Positions 7,656 through 62,687 of a stretch of 64,000 nt of DNA are shown one piece after another (positions within the stretch are counted from its first letter, which is position 1; each line of letters starts with the position of its first letter). Under the pieces are notes generated by a model. The model was not told the origin of the DNA and made no database searches. It saw only the letters and a program-made list of their open reading frames with translations. The stretch comes from a bacterium (GTDB lineage: Bacteria > Patescibacteriota > Minisyncoccia > Portnoybacterales > UBA2143): NCBI GenBank assembly GCA_043818835.1, contig JBDRFK010000010.1:9507-73506 (forward strand), read 5' to 3'. Made by a program: the position numbers and the translations under genes.

Positions 7656-9410
7656 CTATATTTTATTCTTAATTTCTTTACTTATCTTGTCTATAAATTC
7701 TTCAATCTTCATCTGGCCAAGGTCGCCATCCTTACGATGTCGGGCGCTAACCATTTTAGCGTCTTTTTCTTTATCGCCGATAATTAACATATATGGCACT
7801 TTTTCGTTTTGGCTGTTCCTTATTTTTTTACCCAAAGTGTCATCGTCATCTTTCAAAACAGCGCGAATATCGCTTTCTTTTAATTTATTTAAAATTTCAT
7901 TAGCAAATTCTTTTTGCTTTTCACTGATAGTCAAAATATGAACTTGTTCTGGTGCGAGCCAAGCAGGGAAGGCGCCGGCGAAGTATTCAATTAATAACGT
8001 TAAAAATCTTTCATAAGATCCTAAAATTGCGCGATGAACCATTACTGGGTTAATACTGTTTCCTTTTTCGTCTGTATAAACTAAATCAAATCTTTTTGGA
8101 GTGGCGAAATCTACTTGAACAGTTGGGATTTGAATTTCTTTGCCTAAAGAATCTTTAAACATAAAATCTAATTTAGGTCCATATAGCGCCGCTTCGCCTT
8201 CCATTTTTTTCGCATCTAATTTCATCTCATCGGATATTTCTTGAAGCATATTTTCGCATGTATCCCAATCTTTAACATCTCCAATATATTTTTCTGGATG
8301 ATCATAATCTCTTACAGATAAGGATACCCAATGGTTATCCCACATTCCAAGTGATTTGTAGAAATCTTGGATAATATTAACCATGTTTTTAATCTCTTCT
8401 TTGACCTGATCTACTCGACAGAATGAATGTCCATCTTCTACAGTAATGGCTATGACTCTACTTAGACCACTTATTTCTCCAGGTTTTTCATCGCGATATT
8501 GTTTATTAGATTCCATATAGCGAATAGGAAGATCTCTGTATGAACGTGGATGAGAAGCGTATATCTGAGTTTGGTGCGGACATTGCACAGGCTTAAGCAC
8601 ATAGTTTTGTTTATGATGTGACCGAACATGAAAAAGCTCATCGCCAAATTTTTGAGCATGACCAGATAATTCATATAAATCTATTTTTGCTAAGTGTGGA
8701 GTCATAACTTTTTCAAAACCATATCTTCGACAAACAGATTCTATATGTTTTTGTAGTTCATCAATAATTATAGTTCCTTTTGGTGAAAATAGAGGTAAGC
8801 CAGGACCAACTAAATCCGAAAAAGAAAATAGATCTAATTCTTTCCCTAATTTTCTATGATCGCGTTTTTCGGCTTCTGCGACCATTTCTAAATGTTTATC
8901 TAATTCTTCTTTATTTTCAAAAGCAACTCCATAAATGCGAGTGAGCATCGGATTTTTTTCGTCTCCACGCCAATAAGCGCCGGCGACTTTAGTCAGTTTA
9001 AACGCATCAGGGTTTAGTTCTTTGGTAGAATTAATATGTGGGCCCTTGCATAGATCGGTAAAATCTTGCAATTTGTAACTTATAACTTGCAACTTCTTTT
9101 GTTCTTTTTTAATGTCATTGACGAGTTCTAACTTGTAAGGCTGATTTTTAAAGATTTTTTTAGCTTCGGATATTGCCAATTCTTTTTTTTCAAATTTCAA
9201 ATCTTTTTTAATTATCTCGCGCATTTTCTTCTCTATCTTTTTCAAATCTTCAAGTGTGATTTTTACTTTATCAAAGTCGTAATAAAAACCATTTTCAATG
9301 GCTGGTCCAATTCCAAATTGCGCTTCAGGATGTATTTCCAAAACAGCTACTGCCAAGACATGGGCGAATGAATGACTAATTATCTCAATTGTTTTGTTTG
9401 AATTATTCAT
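7656..9410 (-). CDS. thrS: threonyl-tRNA synthetase
   Basis: 584 aa; N-terminal HSFAHVLAVAV editing-domain region, class II core, C-terminal anticodon-binding domain. Confidence 0.9.
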   Translation of the reverse strand: MNNSNKTIEIISHSFAHVLAVAVLEIHPEAQFGIGPAIENGFYYDFDKVKITLEDLKKIEKKMREIIKKDLKFEKKELAISEAKKIFKNQPYKLELVNDIKKEQKKLQVISYKLQDFTDLCKGPHINSTKELNPDAFKLTKVAGAYWRGDEKNPMLTRIYGVAFENKEELDKHLEMVAEAEKRDHRKLGKELDLFSFSDLVGPGLPLFSPKGTIIIDELQKHIESVCRRYGFEKVMTPHLAKIDLYELSGHAQKFGDELFHVRSHHKQNYVLKPVQCPHQTQIYASHPRSYRDLPIRYMESNKQYRDEKPGEISGLSRVIAITVEDGHSFCRVDQVKEEIKNMVNIIQDFYKSLGMWDNHWVSLSVRDYDHPEKYIGDVKDWDTCENMLQEISDEMKLDAKKMEGEAALYGPKLDFMFKDSLGKEIQIPTVQVDFATPKRFDLVYTDEKGNSINPVMVHRAILGSYERFLTLLIEYFAGAFPAWLAPEQVHILTISEKQKEFANEILNKLKESDIRAVLKDDDDTLGKKIRNSQNEKVPYMLIIGDKEKDAKMVSARHRKDGDLGQMKIEEFIDKISKEIKNKI

Positions 9411-13072: not shown

Positions 13073-13221
13073 TGATTGAATCCAAATATCAAAATCTAAA
13101 TGTCAAAAATTTTTAGATTTTAGAATTTGGATTTAATTTGGTATAATTTGAGCTTTGAAATAATTTGGAATTCATCTTTATTCTACCTCTTTAATCTATC
13201 CCAAACAATCTTGACAAAATA

Positions 13222-13265
13222 TAAAATAGAGTCCTCGTAGAGTACTCTACGAGGACTCTATTTTA
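13222..13265. repeat. 44-bp perfect palindrome (core ATAGAGTCCTCGTAGAGTACTCTACGAGGACTCTAT); second copy at 57962
   Basis: Read directly in the divergent dnaE/ligA control region. A near-identical 36-bp core recurs at 57962..57997 with one central substitution. Confidence 0.8.
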
Positions 13266-13391
13266 TAGACACCTATTGACACTCAATGTAGCGGGTGCAA
13301 ATCCCGCCGGGTCCACGTCAAAAAATCTCTGATTATTCAGGGATTTTTTGATTCTTCAAATTTTGGGTGGTTTGGGGTATAATAGTATTAA

Positions 13392-15424
13392 ATGACGAAA
13401 ACCGAAGCCAAAAAAAGAATAGAAAAAATGAAAAAAGTGATTAGTTATCACCGATATTTGTATCATGTTTTAGATAAACCAGAAATTAGCGATGCGGCTT
13501 TGGACTCCTTGAAACACGAATTAAAAAAATTAGAGGATGAATATCCAGAGTTTATCACTTCGGATTCACCGACACAACGGGTTGGTGGTAAGCCTTTGGA
13601 TAAATTTAATAAAATAACACATAAAAAAAGAATGCTGTCTTTGGAAGACGCTTTTAGCGAAGAGGAATTACAGGATTGGGAGAAAAGATTAAAAAACAAG
13701 TTCCAAGTTCCAAGTTCCAAGATTTTAATTATTTTGCAGAACTAAAAGTTGATGGTTTTGCTATTTCCTTATTATATAAAAAAGGTATATTGGTTGGTGC
13801 AGCAACACGCGGTGATGGTCGGATTGGCGAGGACGTTACTCAGAATATAAAGACTATCAATTCAATTCCTTTAAAATTAGAAGTTCATTTTTCCCAAGGT
13901 TTAACTTTAGGAAAAGAAATTAAATCAAAGATTGAAAAAGGTGAGATAGAAATTCGCGGAGAAGTATATATGACCAAAAAGGATTTTGAAAAAGTTAACA
14001 AAGATCGCGCAAAGCAAGGTTTGCCAGTTTACGCTAATCCAAGAAATACGGCGGCGGGGAGTATTCGTCAGCTTGATCCAAGGGTTGCCGCTTCGCGCAA
14101 ATTAAAATTTTTAGCATATTCTGTGCCAACTGATTTGGGGCAAAAAAATCACCAGGAAGAACATCAAATTGCTGAAAGTTTGGGTTTTAGGGTTGGTGAA
14201 AGTAATTTTTGTAAAAATGTAAAAGATATTGTTAATTTTTGGAATAATATTAATAAAAAAAGAGAGAAATTATCATATCAAATTGATGGCATTGTAGTTA
14301 ATGTTAATGATAATAAATTATTTGATAAATTAGGAATAGTAGGTAAGGCTCCGCGCGGAGCAATCGCTTTAAAGTTTGCTGCTGAAGAATCAACTACAAT
14401 AGTTAAAAACATTGTGGTTCAAGTTGGACGAACGGGCGCTTTAACGCCGGTGGCGGTTTTGGAGCCAGTTAATATTGGTGGAACGACAGTAACCAGAGCA
14501 ACTCTGCATAATGAAGATGAAATTAAACGACTTGATGTGCGTATTGGCGATACGGTGATTGTTCAACGAGCTGGTGATGTCATTCCAGATATTGTAGAGG
14601 TTATTAAAAAATTACGAACAGGTAAAGAGAAAAAATTTAAGATGCCAAATAGATGTCCTGTTTGTGATTCAAAAGTTGTTCGTCCAGAAAACGAGGCGGT
14701 GCATCGGTGTGCTAACAAGAATTGTGGCGCGCAACAAAGGGAGAGATTAGCTCATTTTGTTTCTCGCAAAGGTTTTAATATTGATGGCTTGGGTCCTAAA
14801 ATTATTAACCAGTTAATGGACGAAGGGTTGGTTTCTAATCCTGCTGATCTATATTCTTTAACGGAAGGAGATTTAATTCCTCTGGAGAGATTTGCCAAAA
14901 AGTCGGCGGAAAATTTAATCAAGTCAATTCATCAAAGTAAAAAAATATCTTTGTCTAAATTTGTGTTTGCTTTGGGAATTCGTCATACAGGAGAAGAGAC
15001 AGCAATTGCTTTGGCGCAATATTTTGGTGACATAGAAAAAATAAAAAGAGCCTCTCAGGAGCAATTAGCGAATATACCAGATGTTGGTCCTGTTGTTGCC
15101 AAAAGTATTTTTGAATGGTTTAATGATAAGGTAGACCAAGAGGTGTTGGATAGACTTTTGAATAATATAGAAATAGAGAAAGTTAAAACGGTAAAGAAAG
15201 TGTTAGCAGGAAAGACATTTGTTTTGACGGGAGAATTAGGATCTTTAACCAGAGATGAAGCAAAGGAAAAAATTAGAAGTTTGGGTGGTGATATTTCTGG
15301 TTCTGTTTCTAAAAATACTAATTATGTTGTAGCAGGGGAAAATCCGGGTTCTAAATATGATAAAGCAAAGAAATTGGATGTTAAAATTGTTAGTGAGAAA
15401 GATTTTTTAAAATTGTTAAAATAA
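13392..15424 (+). CDS. ligA: NAD-dependent DNA ligase LigA, reading frame broken at 13700-13727 by a heptanucleotide tandem repeat (segments 13392..13745 and 13676..15424)
   Basis: N-terminal Ia domain lies in one frame. KxDG adenylation motif (AELKVDGF), OB fold, Zn finger, HhH and BRCT domains lie in the +2 frame. The junction is caagttc x3. Confidence 0.85.
13700..13727. repeat. (CAAGTTC)x3.6 tandem repeat inside ligA
   Basis: aacaagttccaagttccaagttccaagat. Keeping a single copy restores ...KNKFQDFNYFAELKVDG, which aligns with E. coli LigA. Confidence 0.85.
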
Positions 15425-15425
15425 T

Positions 15426-15716
15426 ATGGATTTAACTAAAAAACAAGCTAAAGAAGTAGCTGGTTTAGCTAGATTAGAATTAACTGATAAGGAAACTAGA
15501 AAGTTTCAAAAAGACCTATCGGCTGTTTTAGATTTTGTAGATAAATTAAATGAAGCAAAGATTGGCAAAGTGGATCCAACAGCGCATATTGCTGGATTAG
15601 AAAATGTTATGCGAGAAGATGAAGGGATTGAAACTGATAAGAAAGTTAGAGAAAAATTATTAAATTTAGCGCCAGATAAAGAAGGTGATCAAGTGAAAGT
15701 AAAGAGTGTTTTGTAA
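15426..15716 (+). CDS. gatC: Asp/Glu-tRNA amidotransferase subunit C
   Basis: 96 aa; LARLELTDKETRKFQKDLSAVLDFVDKL is GatC-like. Confidence 0.9.
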   Translation: MDLTKKQAKEVAGLARLELTDKETRKFQKDLSAVLDFVDKLNEAKIGKVDPTAHIAGLENVMREDEGIETDKKVREKLLNLAPDKEGDQVKVKSVL

Positions 15717-15731
15717 AATTATAATTTTATT

Positions 15732-16169
15732 ATGATAGGCATTATTAATAAATTAAATAAAAAAATAATCATAACTTTATTTTTACTATTGATTATTGTT
15801 TCATTAGTCATTTTTTTCAGCAAAAAAAATAAAAAAATAGAAGTTATAGGCGGCGTGACGCCAGAAGAAACTTTTTTATATGCCGCCCAAGCGATAGAAA
15901 ACGAAGATGCTGATAAGGCGTTAGAAATGTTTAATGTGGGTGCGCATAATAAAGTTAGAAATTTAATAAATGAATTAGACAAAGAAGGAAGACAAAAACT
16001 ATCGCAATCATTAAGAAGCGCTCAACGATCAACAGAAGAAGAATTTCAAACAGAAACTTTTAAAGTATTTAATACAAAAATGAACGTCAAAGGGTTTGCT
16101 TATCCGATTAATATTCAAATTGAAATAATCGCGTTGCCTAATGGGAATTGGGTTATTTTGAATTTGTAA
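15732..16169 (+). CDS. hypothetical membrane-anchored protein
   Basis: N-terminal TM helix; inserted between gatC and gatA; no recognisable domain. Confidence 0.5.
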   Translation: MIGIINKLNKKIIITLFLLLIIVSLVIFFSKKNKKIEVIGGVTPEETFLYAAQAIENEDADKALEMFNVGAHNKVRNLINELDKEGRQKLSQSLRSAQRSTEEEFQTETFKVFNTKMNVKGFAYPINIQIEIIALPNGNWVILNL

Positions 16170-16181
16170 AATTATTGAACT

Positions 16182-17609
16182 TTGATTATGGACTTAAAAT
16201 TATTAACAATCAAAAAAATCCAGAAAGGATTAGCAAATAAAGAATTTACTGCAGAAGAAATTGCGCAGGCTGTTTTTGACCGTATAAATGAAAAAGAAAA
16301 AGATATTCATGCTTATTTAGAATTGATGAAAGAAAGCGCATTAAAACAGGCAAAGGAAATAGATGAAAAAATTAAAAACAATGAAGATATAGGTGTTTTA
16401 GCGGGCGTCCCGATTGCGATTAAAGATAATATTTTGGTTGATAGCGTTAAATGTACAGCGGCATCAAAAATCTTAGAAAATTATATTGCGCCTTACGACG
16501 CGACAGTTATTAAAAAATTAAAAAGCGAGGATGCGATTTTAATTGGCAAAACAAATTGTGATGAATTTGCTATGGGTTCATCAACAGAAAATTCTGCTTT
16601 TGGACCGACAAAAAATCCACATGATCTGGAAAGAGTGCCGGGTGGTTCTTCTGGTGGTTCTGCGGCGGCCGTGGTAGCAGACGAATGTATTGCAGCGATA
16701 GGTTCGGATACAGGCGGATCAATTCGTCAGCCAGCATCATTTTGTGGCGCTGTTGGTTTTAAGCCGACCTATGGGCGAGTTTCGCGTTATGGGTTGATGG
16801 CTTATGCTTCTTCACTTGATCAAATTGGACCCTTGGCAAAAGCAGCAGAAGATACAGAGATAATTTTGAATGTGATTGAAGGACAGGATAACAATGATTC
16901 TACAAGCGCGTCAGATGAAAAATATAAAAATGATGAAGCGATAGATATTAAAAAATTAACTATTGGTATTCCTAAGGAATATTTTGTTGAAGGCATAGAT
17001 TCAAAAGTGGAAAGCGCAGTTCACAAGGCAATCTCCGAATACGAAAAGGTAGGCGCCAAGATTGTGGAAATTAGCTTGCCATACACAGAGTTTGCTTTAG
17101 CAAGTTACTATATCATCTGTACCGCCGAAGCATCATCAAACTTGGCAAGATACGACAGTATTCGTTATGGATTATATAAAAAAGGAAAGAACCTCTTGGA
17201 TGGTTATACAAAGACACGACATGAAGGTTTTGGCGATGAAGTAAAAAAAAGAATTATGCTTGGCACTTATGTCTTGTCGGCGGGGTATTATGATGCCTAT
17301 TATTTAACTGCGCAAAAAGCGCGTACTTTAATCAAAGATGATTTTGTAAAAGCATTTAAAAAAGTTGATGTGATTATGACGCCAACCAGCCCGACAACCG
17401 CTTTTAAAATTGGTGAAAAAATGAATGATCCAGTGGCTATGTATCTATCAGATATCTATACTGTTTCTGTAAACTTGGCTGGTTTGCCAGCTGTATCTAT
17501 TCCATGTCAGAAAGATGGTTTGCCAATCGGTTTACAAATTATCGGCAATCAATTTGAAGATAAAAAAGTTTTAAAAACGGCTCAAATTTATGAAAACATT
17601 TCTAATTGA
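16182..17609 (+). CDS. gatA: Asp/Glu-tRNA amidotransferase subunit A (amidase)
   Basis: Amidase signature [13 protein letters not shown] and catalytic Ser-cisSer-Lys context. Confidence 0.95.
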
Positions 17610-18129
17610 ATTTTACGATAAATTTATTGTCAATTGGCCTGTCTGGTTTGATAAATGGCAGGAGAATATTTTTTATCTAAAAATAATTTTTGTTGGTATT
17701 TCAATAGTTTTATTTATTGGAATTATTTATTACATCATTCTTATTCGTCGTGATATTAAGAAATATTTTGAATTGATTATTGATAGTGTAGAAGCGCCGA
17801 AGGTTCCTAAAAAGAAAGTCACCAAACAATGGGAGGGGATTATACAAAAATTGGAAAGCGACAATACGAGCGATTATAAATTGGCAGTTATTGAAGCAGA
17901 TAAAATGTTAGATGAATTATTAAAAAGGATTGGTTACAAAGGCGATGATATGGGCGCGCGATTAAAGCAATTGACATCAGCACAGGTGCCAAATCTGAAC
18001 GAACTTTGGTCGGCGCATAAGGTGCGTAATCGCATTGCTCATGAATCCAATTTTAATTTAACACGCGAAACAGCTCGCCGAGCGATTGATGCTTACGAAC
18101 GAACATTTGAAGAATTAGAGTTGTTGTAA
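17590..18129 (+). CDS. hypothetical membrane protein with an alpha-helical C-terminal domain (possible HEPN-like R-x4-H motif)
   Basis: TM segment, then KVRNRIAHE in a predicted helical ~110 aa domain. Weak assignment. Confidence 0.4.
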
Positions 18130-23441: not shown

Positions 23442-23819
23442 ATGAAGATGTCCGCTTTTTTAATTGGTGTAATATTAACAACATTATTAGCGCTGGTAGC
23501 GTTGATGGGTATTTTGGTATATTTAGAGCCATTAGCCTCGGATGTTTTGATAATGTCTTTATTCTATTTAAGTCTATTTGTCAGCGCTTCTGGGCTGTTA
23601 TCTTTAGTGGGTATTATTGTTCGGCGTATTTCTCGCAAGTCACGAACGACATTGTCTATCAATTGTCAATTATGGGATTCATTTCGTCAAGGTGTTTTTT
23701 TGGCTGTGATTTTGATTGGTTCTTTATTGATGCAAAGTAATGGTTTGGCTTGTTGGTGGAGTTTGTTAGTTTTGGTTGGCATGGTTGGTTTATTGGAATT
23801 TATATTTTTAAGAAGATAA
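23442..23819 (+). CDS. hypothetical polytopic membrane protein
   Basis: 125 aa with 4 predicted TM helices. Confidence 0.5.
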   Translation: MKMSAFLIGVILTTLLALVALMGILVYLEPLASDVLIMSLFYLSLFVSASGLLSLVGIIVRRISRKSRTTLSINCQLWDSFRQGVFLAVILIGSLLMQSNGLACWWSLLVLVGMVGLLEFIFLRR

Positions 23820-23821
23820 TT

Positions 23822-24799
23822 ATGCTGAAAGATATTAAGCAAAATTTCATAAGCGATTTTAAAAAGGCTAAAGATTTAGTCGGTCTTGACGATCTTTATA
23901 ACAAATACCTTGGACGAAAAGGAGAGTTAACTGATTTTTTAAAGTCATTGAAAGATTTATCAAAAGACAAGCGGGCGAAACAAGGTCAAGAAGCAAATTT
24001 GTTAAAAAAAGAAATAGAACAACAGATTGAAGATAAAAAAAACGAATTAGTAACTTCAGGACATAAATCACAAAAAAAAGATTGGATTGATGTGACTGTT
24101 CCTGGTGTCTTGCCTGTGCAAGGCCATTTGCATCCGATTACATTGGTACAACGGCAGATAGAGGATATTTTCAGTTCTATGGGATTTGAAATAGCGTATG
24201 GTCCGGAAGTAGAAAGCGAACATTATAATTTTGATGCCTTAAATATTCCAAAAGACCATCCAGCACGCGATATGTGGGATACTTTTTGGTTGAAGGATAT
24301 TCCAATGCTTTTGAGGACTCATACATCACCGGTACAAGCGCGTTATATGGAAAAGAATAATCCGCCTTTACGAATTATTGTCCCTGGAAAAGTTTTTCGT
24401 CACGAAGCAACAGATGCTTCTCATGATGCTCAGTTTTATCAAGCGGAAGGGTTAATGGTTGGCAAAGAAGTCTCGGTGGCAAATTTCCGAGCAATTATTG
24501 AAGAATTTTTAAGAAGATTTTTTGGAGAGGAAGCGATAATTAGATTACGTCCAAGTTATTTTCCATTTACCGAGCCGAGTTTTGAAATTGATGTTAAACG
24601 TCCAAAAGGTGATTGGTTAGAAATTATGGGCGCGGGCATGGTTCATCCTAATGTTTTTAAGGCGGTTGGCTATGATCAAAAAAAATGGAAGGGTTTTGCT
24701 TTCGGTGTTGGTTTGGATAGGCTAGCAATGTTAAAATACAAGATAGATGATATTCGTTTATTTCATTCAGGGGATTTAAGATTTATAGATCAGTTTTAA
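23822..24799 (+). CDS. pheS: phenylalanyl-tRNA synthetase alpha subunit
   Basis: Class II motifs (FRHEATDASHDAQFYQAEG, GAGMVHPNV). Start taken at MLKDIKQ. Confidence 0.9.
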   Translation: MLKDIKQNFISDFKKAKDLVGLDDLYNKYLGRKGELTDFLKSLKDLSKDKRAKQGQEANLLKKEIEQQIEDKKNELVTSGHKSQKKDWIDVTVPGVLPVQGHLHPITLVQRQIEDIFSSMGFEIAYGPEVESEHYNFDALNIPKDHPARDMWDTFWLKDIPMLLRTHTSPVQARYMEKNNPPLRIIVPGKVFRHEATDASHDAQFYQAEGLMVGKEVSVANFRAIIEEFLRRFFGEEAIIRLRPSYFPFTEPSFEIDVKRPKGDWLEIMGAGMVHPNVFKAVGYDQKKWKGFAFGVGLDRLAMLKYKIDDIRLFHSGDLRFIDQF

Positions 24800-24802
24800 A
24801 AT

Positions 24803-26869
24803 ATGAAAATATCATATAATTGGTTACAAGATTTAATAGAAGAAAAATTACCTAATTCAGAAAAACTGGCTGATTTGTTGTCTATACGTTCTTTTGAAAT
24901 TGAATTAGCTGAAAAGAAAGACAAAGATTATATTCTCGATGTTGATGTGTTGCCAAATCGCGCTCATGATTGTTTTAGTCATCAAGGTATTGCGCGAGAA
25001 GTGGCGGCGATTTTGAAATTAAATTTGAAGACAACAGATTATTCTAAAATAATCAAAAACAAAGATGGACTAGTTAAAAATATTTTGAATGTTGAAATTA
25101 AGAATAAGGATTTATGCCGTCGTTATACAGCATGCGTATTAAATAATGTCAAAATTGAACCATCATCAAAATTAATACAGAGTCGTCTAATTGCTTGTGG
25201 CCTAAAGCCAATTAATAATATTGTTGATATTACTAATTATGTAATGTTGGAAACGGGACAGCCGATGCATGCTTTTGATGCAGATAAAATATCAGAAAAT
25301 AGGTTGGGACAAAAAAATATTGTTGTTCGCAGGGCTCAAAAAGGTGAAAAAATTAAAACTTTGGATGGTAGTGAATATGATTTAGACGATAATATTCTAT
25401 TGATTGCTGATATTAAAAATCCTCTTTGTATTGCTGGAATTAAAGGAGGAACAGTCTCCGAGATTAACAACAATACTAAAAATATAATTTTGGAAGCGGC
25501 TAATTTTGAGCCAACATTTACGAGGCGCGCTTCTCAAAAATTAAAATTGCGTACAGATGCATCATTACGATTTGAACACGATCTTGATCCAAATTTAACA
25601 AAAGAGGCGATTGATATGGCTGTTTATTTAATTGACGATTTAGCTGGTGGAAGTGTTGTCGGCGATATATTTGATGTTTATCCAAAAAAAGTATTGCCAA
25701 AAAAGATTGTTTTGAATTTGAATGATGTTAATTCTTTATTAGGTGTAACTATTTCTATTAAACAGGTATCTGATATTTTGAAGCGATTAGGTTTTAAGTT
25801 CCAAGTTTTAAGTTCCAAGTTTCAAGTTGAGGTTCCGACCAAGAGAATTGATGTTTCTATTCCAGAAGATTTGATTGAAGAAATCGGACGTATTTATGGG
25901 TATGAAAATATTTCCAGTCAATTTCCGAATGCAGCTTTAATACCGCCAACGACCAATGAAGATGTTGTTTATCAAAATAAGATTAGAAATATTTTGATTG
26001 GGTTTGGATTTGACGAAGTGTACAATTATTCTTTTGTTAGTGACGATGCTCTAAAAATGTATAGGAAAAAAATAAACGCAATTGAGGTGGCTAATCCAAT
26101 TAGTCAGGAACAAAAATACTTGCGTCCAAATTTAATCACAAATTTAATCAGGAACATTAAAGATAATGAAAAATATTTTAATGAAATAAAGATTTTTGAA
26201 TTAGGTAGGGTTTTTTGTGGTAATAAATTAAACGTTAAAGAGACTAAGAAAATTGGTGCGGTGATGGTATTGAATAATAAGAAGAATGAGGCGAATAATT
26301 TTTATGAATTAAAGGGTGTTTTGGATTCTTTGTTTAATAAGTTGCGTATTACAGATCAGTGGTATGACGATGTTTTTTCGGATGATATTTTGGTGTCTGA
26401 TTTGTATCATAATGCGCGACGGGCGGAGGTTAAAGTAGGTGATGAATGTTTAGGATGGATTGGTGAGATTAACAATTTGGTTTTATCAAAATTAGGAATA
26501 AAATCTAAAGTAGTTGGTTTTGAATTGTTTTTTGATAAAGTTGCGGAATTGGCAACAGAGGAAAGAATCTATTTGCCACCTTCAAAATATCCTGCTATGG
26601 TAAGAGATATCGCCGTATTGGTAGAGAGAGGAACAAAAGTTGAAGATGTGCTTAATTTGATAAATGTGGTGGGTAGCAGTTTGGTAGTAGATGTAGATTT
26701 GTTTGATATTTACGAGGATGAGCAATCTGGAGATGGGCGTAAAAGTATTGCTTTTCATATAATTTATCAGTCAGATGAGCATAATTTAACAGATAAAGAG
26801 GTTAACGAAGTGCAGAAAAAAATTGTTAAAGTTTTAGAAGACGAAGGCGGTTGGGATGTTCGGAAATAG
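24803..26869 (+). CDS. pheT: phenylalanyl-tRNA synthetase beta subunit
   Basis: 688 aa; B3/4 and B5 domains. Contains an in-frame heptamer array at 25795-25830 (KFQVLSSKFQV). Confidence 0.9.
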   Translation: MKISYNWLQDLIEEKLPNSEKLADLLSIRSFEIELAEKKDKDYILDVDVLPNRAHDCFSHQGIAREVAAILKLNLKTTDYSKIIKNKDGLVKNILNVEIKNKDLCRRYTACVLNNVKIEPSSKLIQSRLIACGLKPINNIVDITNYVMLETGQPMHAFDADKISENRLGQKNIVVRRAQKGEKIKTLDGSEYDLDDNILLIADIKNPLCIAGIKGGTVSEINNNTKNIILEAANFEPTFTRRASQKLKLRTDASLRFEHDLDPNLTKEAIDMAVYLIDDLAGGSVVGDIFDVYPKKVLPKKIVLNLNDVNSLLGVTISIKQVSDILKRLGFKFQVLSSKFQVEVPTKRIDVSIPEDLIEEIGRIYGYENISSQFPNAALIPPTTNEDVVYQNKIRNILIGFGFDEVYNYSFVSDDALKMYRKKINAIEVANPISQEQKYLRPNLITNLIRNIKDNEKYFNEIKIFELGRVFCGNKLNVKETKKIGAVMVLNNKKNEANNFYELKGVLDSLFNKLRITDQWYDDVFSDDILVSDLYHNARRAEVKVGDECLGWIGEINNLVLSKLGIKSKVVGFELFFDKVAELATEERIYLPPSKYPAMVRDIAVLVERGTKVEDVLNLINVVGSSLVVDVDLFDIYEDEQSGDGRKSIAFHIIYQSDEHNLTDKEVNEVQKKIVKVLEDEGGWDVRK

Positions 26870-47139: not shown

Positions 47140-47667
47140 AGTTCTTAGTAAATTAGTAAGCCGAATTCTGTTATACTATTTTGTCATTATCCGGTTTGAC
47201 TGGATAATCTAGAAATAATATAGATGATCATCTATCTGGGATTGATATTACTATCAACCTCTAGCGAGCTACTTGTCTTACCCCACAATAGTGGGATAGT
47301 TTGCTCTTGCACCGGGCAGGGTTTGTCACGCTATTACGTTTCCGTAAAGCGAGAAGGGTCTTAATCCTTCACTTTTCATCCTTACCAAGTTTATGTCATT
47401 CTGAACGGAGCGAAGCGGAGTGAAGAATCTCGTAGAACTTGCCACGGGATTCTTCGGGCTTTGCCCTCAGAATGACGACTGGGCGGTTTTGTTTCTGTGA
47501 CACTTTCCCTAGACTTTGCTTTAAACAATTTGTCTCGAGAACAAATTACTTAAAACTACTTCCGACGGATGTTATCCGTTGCCCTTTTTTTATGGTGTTC
47601 GGACTTTCCTCCCCGCACCACTTTTTTTGAAAAGTAGTGGAGGCAATCATCTTATTTACTAAGAACT
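47140..47667 (-). ncRNA. rnpB: RNase P RNA (bacterial type A) carrying a palindromic mini-element at the P12 position
   Basis: Minus strand shows P1 pairing (AGUUCUUAGUAAAU/AUUUACUAAGAACU), P3 hairpin, GGGGAGGAAAGUCCGAACACCAUA...GGGCA (P4 5' strand), CACAGAAACAAAACCGCC, GGUAAGGAUGAAAAGUGAAGG, CCCGGUGCAAGAGCAAACUAUCC and ACAGAAUUCGGCUUAC (P4 3' strand). All match conserved M1 RNA blocks in order. Confidence 0.8.
47394..47476. repeat. palindromic mini-element copy I, located inside rnpB between the ACCGCC and GGUAAGG blocks (P12)
   Basis: TGTCATTCTGAACGGAGCGAAGCGGAGTGAAGAATCTCG...GGGATTCTTCGGGCTTTGCCCTCAGAATGACG. Confidence 0.8.
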
Positions 47668-56366: not shown

Positions 56367-57965
56367 ATGATAAAAAAACTTCTTAATAATAAAATAAGCA
56401 CTATTACTATGGCCGCTGTCGTTTTGGGAGCGGCTTCTTTTTTGAGTCGTCTTATTGGTCTTTTTAGAGATAGAATTCTATTGAATATGTTTGGTACGGG
56501 TAGAGAGTTGGATATATATTATGCCGCTTTTCGTATTCCAGATTTTGTTTACGCTTTTTTTATCTTAGGTGTTATCTCGGCAGGCTTTGTTCCTGTGTTC
56601 ATTCATTATCTTCAAAAAGATAAAGAAAAATCGTGGTATTTGGCTAATAATATTTTGAATCTAATTGCTATTGTTTTAATAGTGGTTTGTTTAGTTTTAG
56701 TATTTTTTGTTCCTTATATTGTTCACTTGGTGGCACCCGGGTTTGAAAAAGAGAGCGCAGATATGACAATCAAATTGGCTCGGATTATGTTTTTAAGTCC
56801 GATATTTTTAGGCATCAGCGCTGTTTTCAGTGGGATTTTACAAAGCTTCCGTCGGTTTCTTATATATTCATTAGCGCCGATTATGTATAATTTGGGAATA
56901 ATTTTTGGCGCATTATTTTTGGTAAAATATTTTGGTTTAATTGGTTTGGCTTACGGCGTCGTTCTGGGTGCTTTTTGTCATATGATGATTCAAATTCCGA
57001 CAGCAATTTTTTGTGGGTATAAATGGCGTCCAATATTAAACTTAAAATTTGATGGATTGAAAAGAGTATTAAAGTTAATGCCACCACGGTTTTTGAGTTT
57101 GATTTTTTATCAAATTACTTTCTGGGTTTTTACGGCTATTGCGTCGTTATTGGCAGTGGGGAGCATAGTAATTTATAATACGGCTTATAATATTTTTAGT
57201 TTTCCATTAGGTATATTTGCCTTATCTTATGCAGTGGCGGCTTTTCCGAAATTGTCGGAAAGCGCACAAAAAAAAGATAAGCGAGAATATGTTCGGACTT
57301 TTTCGGCTACCGCACGACAAATATTGTTCTTTATTATTCCAGTTGCGGTTTTGTTTATTATCTTAAGATTACAAATAATTCAGGTGCTATTTTCTGGAGG
57401 TAAGTTTAGTTGGCAAGATACAATGCTGATTGGACAGACTTTGATGTATTTTTGTATTGGTCTTTTTGCAGAAGGTTTGGCTTTGTTTCTGTTGCGTGGG
57501 TTTTTTGCATGGGAAGACACAATAACGCCCTTTGTATTGGCGTTTATTACTATGGTAATTCGTATAGCCAGTGGTTGGTATCTGACCAGATTTTTTGGGG
57601 TTGCTGGTTTGTCTTTAGGATTTGCTATTGGTAGTATTTGTTTTTTTGTGTTGCTTTTAATTTGTTTAAGAAAAAAGGTGGGATTATTGGATGGTAAAAA
57701 TATTTTTAATTCAGCAATTAGAATTGCTATTGCAACATTATTTGCGGGTGGCGTGTCATATTTTATATTAAATCTTTTGACTATAAAAATTCCGGCTATT
57801 GTTCCAATAATGATGCTTTTGAAAGGTGGTATCGCAGGCATTTTAGGTGTTATTATCTATTTTGTTTTTGCTTGGATTTTAAAAATTCCAGAATTTTATT
57901 TATTTGTTTCCTCTTTATCAAGAAAATTGTCTATAAAAAAACTTCCGCCACGACAGGAGATATAG
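56367..57965 (+). CDS. murJ: lipid II flippase MurJ
   Basis: 532 aa, 14 TM helices; N-terminus ASFLSRLIGLFRDRILLNMFGTG...YYAAFRIPDF is typical of MviN/MurJ. Confidence 0.9.
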   Translation: MIKKLLNNKISTITMAAVVLGAASFLSRLIGLFRDRILLNMFGTGRELDIYYAAFRIPDFVYAFFILGVISAGFVPVFIHYLQKDKEKSWYLANNILNLIAIVLIVVCLVLVFFVPYIVHLVAPGFEKESADMTIKLARIMFLSPIFLGISAVFSGILQSFRRFLIYSLAPIMYNLGIIFGALFLVKYFGLIGLAYGVVLGAFCHMMIQIPTAIFCGYKWRPILNLKFDGLKRVLKLMPPRFLSLIFYQITFWVFTAIASLLAVGSIVIYNTAYNIFSFPLGIFALSYAVAAFPKLSESAQKKDKREYVRTFSATARQILFFIIPVAVLFIILRLQIIQVLFSGGKFSWQDTMLIGQTLMYFCIGLFAEGLALFLLRGFFAWEDTITPFVLAFITMVIRIASGWYLTRFFGVAGLSLGFAIGSICFFVLLLICLRKKVGLLDGKNIFNSAIRIAIATLFAGGVSYFILNLLTIKIPAIVPIMMLLKGGIAGILGVIIYFVFAWILKIPEFYLFVSSLSRKLSIKKLPPRQEI

Positions 57966-57997
57966 AGTCCTCGTAGAGTACTCCACGAGGACTCTAT
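57962..57997. repeat. 36-bp palindrome ATAGAGTCCTCGTAGAGTACTCCACGAGGACTCTAT (second copy of the element at 13226)
   Basis: Differs from the 13226 copy by a single central T/C. Overlaps the murJ stop codon. Confidence 0.8.
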
Positions 57998-61286: not shown

Positions 61287-61721
61287 ATGGCTCAATCAAA
61301 TAAAAAAACTATAAGGAAAATTCTTGGTTCAAAAACTTTTTTAGTTTTAATTTTATTTGCATTGATTGGAATAGTGTTAAGTGTAGGACGGGAAAGTTAT
61401 AATAAATATCAATTAACCAAAGAAATAAATAAGTTAAAAGGTGATATCGAAAAAATAGAAGGGCGGAATAGCCAGCTTGCCGATTTGATGGACTATTTCT
61501 CAGAAGATTCTTTTTTAGAGAAAGAGGCTAAGGTTAAGTTGAATTTACAAAAGCCGGGTGAGAAAGTAGTTATATTCTCAGATGTCTATAGTGACGATGT
61601 AACGGATAGTGTTAATTCTCAGGAGGCGATAGATAATTCTGATAATCAAGATAACAATGACCGATTGGCAAATTGTTGGAAATGGTGGGAATATTTCTTT
61701 AATCCGCCTCTGGAGGATTAG
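61287..61721 (+). CDS. septum formation initiator family protein (FtsB/DivIC-like)
   Basis: N-terminal TM helix, coiled coil and EKEAKVKLNLQKPGEKVV (FtsB-type motif). Confidence 0.7.
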   Translation: MAQSNKKTIRKILGSKTFLVLILFALIGIVLSVGRESYNKYQLTKEINKLKGDIEKIEGRNSQLADLMDYFSEDSFLEKEAKVKLNLQKPGEKVVIFSDVYSDDVTDSVNSQEAIDNSDNQDNNDRLANCWKWWEYFFNPPLED

Positions 61722-61922: not shown

Positions 61923-62687
61923 ATGAAAGAATTAAAAAACAAATTAATTGGAAAATACGATAAGAATAAAGCTATTGTGTCTATTTATGCTGGAGCGGGT
62001 GGGGCAGATGCGCAGGACTGGGCGGAAATATTGTTGAGGATGTATCTTAGGTATGCTCAAAAAAATAACTGGTCAGCCAAGGTATTGCAAATTAAAGAGG
62101 GTAAAGAGGCGGGGATAAAAAATGTGACCTTGTCTATCAATGAGCCATACACTTATGGATATTTGAAAGGTGAGACAGGTGTGCATCGTTTGGTAAGAAT
62201 TTCTCCATTCAGTTCTGCTAAGTTACGTCATACTTCTTTTGCGATGGTTGATATTTTACCAGAACTTGGAGATATGGGGGAAATAAAAATAGATCCACAA
62301 GATTTAAGAGTTGATACCTATAGGGCCAGTGGTCCGGGTGGGCAGTATGTTAATAAGACAGAATCGGCAGTAAGAATTACACATTTTCCAACGGGCGTTG
62401 TTGTTGCTTGTCAAAGTGAGCGTTTGCAGGGAGAAAATAAGAAACAAGCAATGAAATTGCTTTATGCTAAATTGCATCAACTTTTATTAAAAAGTAAAGA
62501 GAAAGAGATTAGTAAATTGAAAGGCGATGCTGTGTCAATTGAATGGGGGAATCAAATTCGTTCTTATGTTCTACATCCTTATCAGATGATCAAAGACCAT
62601 CGTACAGGCGTAAAAAGTTCCAGTCCTGATAAGGTATTAGATGGTGATTTAGATAAGTTTATTGAAGCAGAAATTAAAAATATTTAA
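61923..62687 (+). CDS. prfB: peptide chain release factor 2-type protein (SPF and GGQ motifs) lacking the ~110 aa N-terminal domain 1
   Basis: RISPFSS (SPF), RASGPGGQYVNKTESAVRI (GGQ). The ORF starts 45 nt after tRNA-Thr, so no upstream coding room and no frameshift site. Confidence 0.75.
   Translation: MKELKNKLIGKYDKNKAIVSIYAGAGGADAQDWAEILLRMYLRYAQKNNWSAKVLQIKEGKEAGIKNVTLSINEPYTYGYLKGETGVHRLVRISPFSSAKLRHTSFAMVDILPELGDMGEIKIDPQDLRVDTYRASGPGGQYVNKTESAVRITHFPTGVVVACQSERLQGENKKQAMKLLYAKLHQLLLKSKEKEISKLKGDAVSIEWGNQIRSYVLHPYQMIKDHRTGVKSSSPDKVLDGDLDKFIEAEIKNI

Follow-up and report, generated by a model that had tools for sequence, protein, structure and literature searches.

Frameshifted genes in endosymbionts are reportedly rescued by transcriptional slippage at long poly(A) tracts, a finding said to go back to work by Tamas et al. 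in 2008. Two frames can also be joined during translation, as in the insertion sequence IS1, where a programmed -1 frameshift between insA and insB' takes place on the heptamer A_AAA_AAC (Escoubas et al. 1991, as cited in PMC4066793). Intragenic heptanucleotide tracts are known from Haemophilus influenzae, with (AATTTTG)14 in hmw1A and (AACAACC)8-13 in a TonB-dependent receptor gene, and the known heptanucleotide phase-variable tracts comprise 8-38 units (PMC2651432). A wrong repeat number has also been called "another common assembly error" (Chen et al. 2020, Genome Res., PMC7111523), and in one curated 1.13-Mb CPR genome there were 13 local errors, one of them in a repeat-containing protein-coding gene (PMC7111523).

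In the window, i.e., the whole 64-kb stretch of DNA analyzed here, which comes from a small genome of Patescibacteria type, ligA is split into a frame-0 ORF at 13392..13745 (117 aa) and a frame-2 ORF at 13676..15424 (582 aa), which overlap by 70 nt. The first ORF matches the Pfam family Nlig-Ia (residues 7-56) and positions 3-39 of the DNA_ligase_aden profile; the second matches positions 33-253 of the same profile, followed by the OB, Zn-finger, HhH, and BRCT families. Jointly, the two ORFs hold the full LigA domain set recognized by Pfam (Ia - NTase with KxDG - OB - C4 Zn finger - HhH - BRCT). In the 5' part (13392..13745, plus strand), domain Ia is followed by the beginning (~40 residues) of the adenylation (NTase) domain, and the body in frame 2 (13722..15424, plus strand) includes the rest of the NTase domain with the catalytic Lys, the OB fold, the C4 zinc finger, HhH, and BRCT, with no interruption before its stop codon. 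Identity to named LigA proteins is 65-72%, and the protein aligns to the E. coli LigA structures 2owo and 4glx with E~1e-74. What it lacks is one continuous reading frame, which changes from 0 to 2 at 13697-13721. Beyond the repeat found there, the frame-0 ORF runs on out of frame (..VPSSKILIILQN) until a TAA codon at 13743-13745, and this stop overlaps the AAA codon of the catalytic Lys (13745-13747, KVDG). A promoter-like element, TTCAAA-17-TATAAT (13355..13383, plus strand; a consensus match only, 10/12), ends 8 nt before the ligA ATG (13392), a position suggesting that the ligA mRNA may have a very short leader or be leaderless. In the dnaE-ligA intergenic region a permissive Rfam scan gave sub-threshold, hairpin-driven matches only.

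The frame changes within a perfect (CAAGTTC)x3 + CAAG tract of 25 nt (13697..13721, plus strand), where the window reads GAG AAA AGA TTA AAA AAC AAG TTC CAA GTT CCA AGT TCC AAG ATT TTA; the homologous in-frame state has four units (32 nt). TRF describes the tract as period 7, with 3.6 copies, 100% matches and the consensus CAAGTTC. Nowhere else in the 64-kb window is there a perfect period-7 run of at least 19 nt; dinucleotide-type shuffles predict 0.03. The frame is open with 1, 4, or 7 units and closed with 0, 2, 3, 5, or 6, and addition of one heptamer unit restores a single ligA frame. The preliminary description had already placed the break inside a (CAAGTTC)x3 repeat and had stated that the gene would be open with one or four units; the ORFs, Pfam, and TRF bear out the former, including its coordinates, and the unit-number test the latter. 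As in contingency loci, a perfect tandem repeat with a unit length not divisible by 3 lies within an ORF, but hypermutable length is not a property of this tract, which has 3.6 units (4.6 in the in-frame form) as against the 8-38 of described heptanucleotide tracts.

The 120 best homologues listed are full-length LigA proteins of 658-739 aa from Patescibacteria, with 61-72% identity, several of them named Portnoybacteria or Parcubacteria. The spacing from MLSL to the Lys of KxDG is 35 residues in most homologues and ranges from 34 to 54 over ~200 of them. Four homologues, including the two top-scoring ones, combine a spacing of 40 residues with a peptide very like that encoded by the repeat, namely P0032 (KKKFQVSSFKFQGFDY), P0049 (KKMFQVSSFKLHGLDY), and P0001 and P0002 (both KKKLQASSYRLQKLDY). 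Reconstruction with four units gives a protein of 679 aa, restores KFQVPSSKFQDF and yields the same spacing of 40; in the repeat region this protein (KNKFQVPSSKFQDFNY) aligns without a gap to that of P0032 and shares with all four homologues the peptide KFQV.S.KFQ.F. In comparison with E. coli LigA, the four-unit form is 4 aa longer, the additional residues being inserted in the loop before the KxDG strand. A grouping of the 40-residue-loop LigAs with the window as one clade was also considered, but was not borne out by a neighbor-joining tree with the junction masked, in which the window stands beside P0003 and P0010, both of the 35-residue type, and the 40-residue types are interspersed.

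The DNA of the repeat-bearing relatives has a period-7 structure at the homologous ligA position. The tract is a perfect (AAGTTTC)x4 of 29 nt in locus L003, where ligA is intact, a perfect 24-nt tract (3.4 units) in L085, and a decayed one, AAGCTTC AAGCTTC AAGTTAC CGATTAC, in L004 and L086. When ATT AAA AAA (AAGTTTC)x4 AGGGTTTTGATTAT of L003 is aligned with TTA AAA AAC (AAGTTCC)x3 AAGATTTTAATTAT of the window, the flanks are gap-free and exactly one 7-nt unit is missing from the latter. The gap-free flanks, together with the matching peptide and spacing of the four-unit form, thus point to one missing unit and not to two extra ones. A single-frame ligA is present in all five subclade loci read (L003, L004, L085, L086, and L167), and 160 related loci match across the whole ligA query. 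The heptamer units are alike within a lineage and differ between lineages, being CAAGTTC in the window, CAAGTTT in L003 and L085, and CAAGCTT in L004; position 6 of the unit is C in all window units and T in all L003 units, and L004 has AAGCTTC twice. This homogenization by lineage indicates repeated turnover of units in vivo rather than independent point mutation. From these comparisons, the native gene very probably has four units, the window being one unit short and the gene otherwise functional, and its true product is almost certainly the 679-aa protein with four units.

Apart from the repeat, the sequence is clean. No other split gene was found among the ~48 Pfam-annotated ORFs of the window, which is what marks the lesion as repeat-specific. 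An overlap between 23442..23819 and 23750..24799 was considered as a second frameshift and rejected, as the ATG of pheS lies just after the stop at 23819 (about 23822-23823); position 23750 is only an upstream TTG, and the ORF preceding pheS (23442..23819) has no Pfam match. Identity to eight intact relatives is 65-72% for the N part of ligA and 66-74% for the body, compared with 68-76% and 71-72%, respectively, for the intact relatives among themselves, and the residues of the Ia domain agree with those of intact neighbors such as P0010. A test for pseudogene decay was therefore negative: ligA has a single lesion, and its two halves are conserved to the degree seen between intact relatives. 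A GatC look-up led to two independent Logan contigs from the same strain, to which the runs SRR27458547 and SRR27458548 belong; they span 13744-16349 and 14088-16248, both 3' of the tract, and differ from the window by one SNP, a synonymous CCT to CCG change at 14659. The start of one of these contigs at 13744 was rejected as a sign of polymorphism, which would be an over-interpretation, as a bubble between three and four units would put a shared contig start at 13697. Protein-guided scans of genome and metagenome contigs did not find the species itself, only relatives with at most 66% and 62% identity, respectively; a search of metagenomes for the upstream flank followed by two units had 0 matches, and exact-product look-ups for the 117-aa ORF and for DnaE turned up no sister contigs.

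Heptanucleotide arrays related to that of ligA were observed elsewhere in the window. The motif AAGTTnnAAGTT has 11 occurrences at four loci, where 0.45 would be expected and no shuffle had more than 3, and among non-homopolymeric 5-mers AAGTT alone is enriched at a spacing of 7 nt (11 vs. 0.65 expected). The array in thrS (~9050-9102, minus strand) reads AAAAG AAGTTGC AAGTTAT AAGTTAC AAATTGC AAGATTTTA and encodes KKLQVISYKLQDF; that in pheT (25791-25828) reads GTTTTAA GTTCCAA GTTTTAA GTTCCAA GTTTCAA GTT and encodes GFKFQVLSSKFQVEV; and another (2494-2533) lies in the spacer directly upstream of the rplF ATG. The thrS array and the four-unit ligA array with its flanks match at 36 of 44 positions, with null maxima of 25-28. 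PheT shows no length change with respect to E. coli PheT, ThrS is 3 aa longer than that of S. aureus, and in the syntenic relative L167 the thrS segment is equally long and has no periodicity. The absence of a large length change, together with the aperiodic thrS of L167, indicates that the arrays arose in place in the lineage of the window. The homogenized ligA repeat and the arrays in thrS and pheT suggest that a repeat-generating process is active in this lineage.

The mechanistic ALTERNATIVES weighed were (a) assembly miscount, (b) real slippage, (c) recoding, and (d) a split enzyme. The favored explanation, with about an even chance of being correct and ahead of a genuine dominant slipped allele, is that the units were miscounted in assembly or consensus or that a minority slipped allele was taken up. 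On this explanation ligA would encode a normal single-chain NAD+-dependent DNA ligase, in which a surface loop just before the KxDG strand would be encoded by the heptanucleotide repeat, and four units of the repeat would keep the frame open (..KNKFQVPSSKFQDFNYFAELKVDG, 679 aa). With three units in the window, the repeat is one 7-nt unit short, and this one difference shifts the frame; this unit was most likely lost in silico, either because the assembler or the consensus miscounted or because a minority slipped allele was chosen, and the organism would make an ordinary LigA. The four-unit tract, 32 nt long, has repeated k-mers at k<=25, and in a de Bruijn simulation of the four-unit allele with k=19-25 the graph is cyclic and the sole node-simple path is exactly the three-unit sequence observed in the window, four units being recovered at k>=26. 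Common multi-k metagenome assemblers have a smallest default k of 20-21. Against a collapse of this kind, such assemblers usually correct it at larger k, given adequate coverage, and the 29-nt perfect tract of L003 was assembled in frame even though, reckoned in the same way, it would be cyclic at k<=22; collapse is thus not inevitable.

The unit may instead have been truly lost by slipped-strand mispairing, with the three-unit allele dominant or substantial in the sampled population. One such event in the cell would give the identical step from four to three, and homogenization of the units shows that the tract slips in vivo over evolutionary time, so a real slipped allele is a serious alternative, possible although on the whole unlikely. 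The ligA of the window would then be a null or 'OFF' allele of very recent origin, and viability would require rescue, reversion, or complementation by another ligase elsewhere in the genome. A change of one unit in either direction is the commonest outcome of slippage, the lineage-specific identical units imply repeated turnover in vivo, the absence of decay in ligA fits a very recent loss, and the rest of the window is free of assembly-type indels, indicating an otherwise accurate assembly. LigA is, however, normally essential, a lethal allele would not be expected as the consensus, nor a null allele of such a gene as the dominant one in a population, and the identical sequence is predicted by collapse at k=19-25. 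The preliminary description had proposed to look for a second ligase, and the K.DG scan and Pfam detected none, ATP-dependent enzymes included, within the 64 kb, an answer confined to the window. Moreover, a tract of 3-4 units should slip rarely in comparison with the 8-38 units of known phase-variable tracts (PMC2651432). The same description had concluded that one CAAGTTC unit was native and that the window carried 'two extra 7-bp units', a conclusion that is very improbable in view of the relatives. One unit is in frame, giving a protein of 672 aa, and the closest relatives by overall identity (P0003 and P0010) have the short 35-residue loop, but the resulting spacing of 33 is shorter than in all homologues examined (minimum, 34) and in E. 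coli (36), and intact relatives, L003 among them, carry the tract with four units as well as its peptide. The gain of two units from a tract of 1.6 units would also be an unusual event, whereas four to three takes one ordinary slip and, as the more parsimonious step, is favored. Assembly error, population heterogeneity, and translational frameshifting, as listed in that description, all stay live alternatives.

Translational frameshifting would allow a real three-unit allele to be expressed, full-length LigA being made by low-level -1 ribosomal slippage on A_AAA_AAC, as in IS1 InsAB'. This heptamer (13691..13697, plus strand), a putative low-efficiency -1 slip site, adjoins the repeat on its 5' side, where it is in phase with frame 0 and inside the 70-nt overlap, and the shift needed is -1; slippage there would give a LigA of 677 aa (..LKNQVPSSKFQDF..) with a spacing of 38, within the natural range of 34-54. 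One A added by transcriptional slippage in the A6 run would be an equivalent route to the same product of 677 aa and spacing 38, although an A6 run is short for such slippage. Cells tolerate much-reduced ligase levels. A stimulatory RNA structure was not found on folding of 13685-13800 (z=+0.25; 124 of 200 shuffles fold as well), nor was an SD-like stimulator at the right distance, in a genome that does not use SD sequences; by analogy with IS1, where A_AAA_AAC is a proven frameshift motif and no stimulator has been established (PMC4066793), one is not strictly required. Recoding is nonetheless improbable, as LigA is encoded in a single frame in all ~280 relatives examined, so that the two-frame arrangement is not conserved, and the A-run corresponds to conserved Lys-rich KK(K/N) codons, which are AAA AAA AAG in relatives. 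A broader proposal on the same premise of a real three-unit allele, and one with little to recommend it, holds that a conserved, concertedly evolving repeat reversibly switches ligA off or leaves it dependent on IS1-like -1 slippage, the tract belonging to a genome-specific family of period-7 AAGTTnn arrays that a slippage or templated-patch process would have written into surface loops of several essential genes (thrS, ligA, pheT) and upstream of rplF. Scarcely credible is a truly split gene, in which the 117-aa Ia fragment and a 582-aa body starting from the TTG at 13676..13678 (plus strand) would assemble into an active ligase. Both ORFs are intact and this TTG is preceded by GAGGA, but it is not credible as an independent start in a genome whose genes start with ATG and do without SD sequences (ATG in 35 of the 36 gene starts listed, the 36th being listed one base out of register, with a Shine-Dalgarno-like upstream sequence in none); frame 2 has no ATG until ~98 codons into the ORF, past the catalytic lysine. 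The split would also interrupt the NTase fold, ~10 residues short of the catalytic Lys, the overlap would give both pieces out-of-frame tails, and ligA is split in no relative.

Read support should come before any annotation of ligA as pseudogene, split, or recoded. On the favored explanation, a miscounted or minority repeat, the locus would provide a clean example of how a 32-nt period-7 tract, collapsing by exactly one unit at k<=25, produces a false frameshift in an essential gene. If the three-unit allele were real, it would be unusual for a reduced genome to have an essential ligase that a short coding repeat switches.

Among the known systems, the repeat-number errors of metagenome-assembled genomes (PMC7111523) resemble this locus in that the genome is of CPR type, the lesion is confined to a short perfect repeat in a protein-coding gene, and the observed ligA allele is the product of small-k collapse; unlike those, the ligA tract is only 32 nt long, a length that reads and larger k would normally resolve. 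With the simple sequence repeats of contingency loci, ligA shares a unit that is not a multiple of three within an ORF, so that a change of one unit switches the frame, and its homogenized units indicate slippage over evolutionary time; it differs in having 3-4 units rather than 8-38, and in coding for an essential housekeeping enzyme, unlike the surface or restriction-modification genes of those loci. The likeness to IS1 lies in an identical heptamer, in phase, acting in the -1 direction and without an obvious stimulator; however, the two-frame arrangement of IS1 is conserved and functional, whereas the relatives of ligA are all single-frame and its heptamer is explained by Lys codons. As in the rescued genes of endosymbionts, an essential gene of a reduced genome carries a frameshift beside an A-run, but the run in ligA has 6 nt as against about 9 or more, and the indel lies in the heptamer repeat and not in the A-run. 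A coding repeat that breaks the frame and a probable assembly error in repeat number are thus both of known kinds, and what is unusual here is only the conserved and homogenized heptamer repeat in an essential gene together with the AAGTTnn family.

Period-7 AAGTTnn arrays occur at four loci in the window, where they constitute a genome-specific family: upstream of rplF (2494-2533, + strand), inside thrS (9050-9102, - strand), inside ligA (13697-13721, + strand) and inside pheT (25791-25828, + strand). The sequence AAGTTnnAAGTT is found 11 times in the window against 0.45 occurrences expected, and all three coding arrays, those of thrS, ligA and pheT, encode the peptide K[FL]QV.S.K[FL]Q. These coding arrays substitute for loop segments, with no large change in length. 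When compared with the four-unit ligA array (the reconstructed in-frame form, one 7-nt unit longer than that of the window) and its flanks, the thrS array matched at 36/44 positions, the null maxima being 25-28. The thrS array is absent from the syntenic relative L167, a related locus with an intact ligA. A weaker, inverted period-7 quasi-array of CAAnnTT units (2451-2494, - strand) adjoins the array upstream of rplF and matches the ligA array probe at 30 of 44 positions; the 88-nt rpsH-rplF spacer thus holds two arrays of opposite orientation.

An independent contig of the same strain, L001 (Logan SRR27458547, k=31), corresponds to window positions 13744-16349. Its first base, 23 nt past the ligA repeat, is precisely the initial A of the AAAA run 13744-13747, and not position 13697, where an assembly-graph bubble between coexisting three- and four-unit alleles would break; the contig is therefore uninformative on the number of ligA units.

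Gene starts throughout the window, for example at 13355-13394, are preceded by AT-rich sequence without Shine-Dalgarno motifs, and the start codon is ATG in nearly all genes. In ligA, a TATAAT sits 8 nt before the ATG, which suggests a leaderless or very short-leader mRNA. A terminator-like hairpin (13318-13351) lies just upstream of this promoter-like site and 3' of a T-arm-like hairpin, GCGGG TGCAAAT CCCGC followed by CGGGTCCACG, within 13290-13351, a region where neither ARAGORN nor Rfam called a tRNA or tmRNA. The intergenic region between the divergent dnaE and ligA genes also contains a perfect 48-bp palindrome (13220-13267), TATAAAATAGAGTCCTCGTAGAGT followed by ACTCTACGAGGACTCTATTTTATA, for which Rfam returned only sub-threshold hairpin matches. 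A near-copy of 36 bp (94%) is located at the 3' end of murJ (57962-57997), and the two could be copies of an operator or of a REP-like element.

Further features were observed elsewhere in the window. The release-factor ORF at 61923-62687, which starts 44 nt past tRNA-Thr, encodes only 254 aa, and since its match is limited to PCRF profile positions 85-194 and the RF-1 domain, it is without the N-terminal domain. The upstream ORF 61287-61721 was ruled out as the missing N-terminal part, being DivIC-like. A conserved ORF of about 178 aa, present in the window (17590-18129) and in two related loci, L004 (6452-6985) and L167 (13952-14485), shares 20 nt with the end of gatA in each of them; its matches to HEPN domains are weak only (HEPN_Swt1, E=4e-4, under the curated cutoff). 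The RNase P RNA, of bacterial type A (47141-47662, - strand, 195 bits), spans 522 nt against the 367 positions of the model, and thus carries about 150 nt of insertions.
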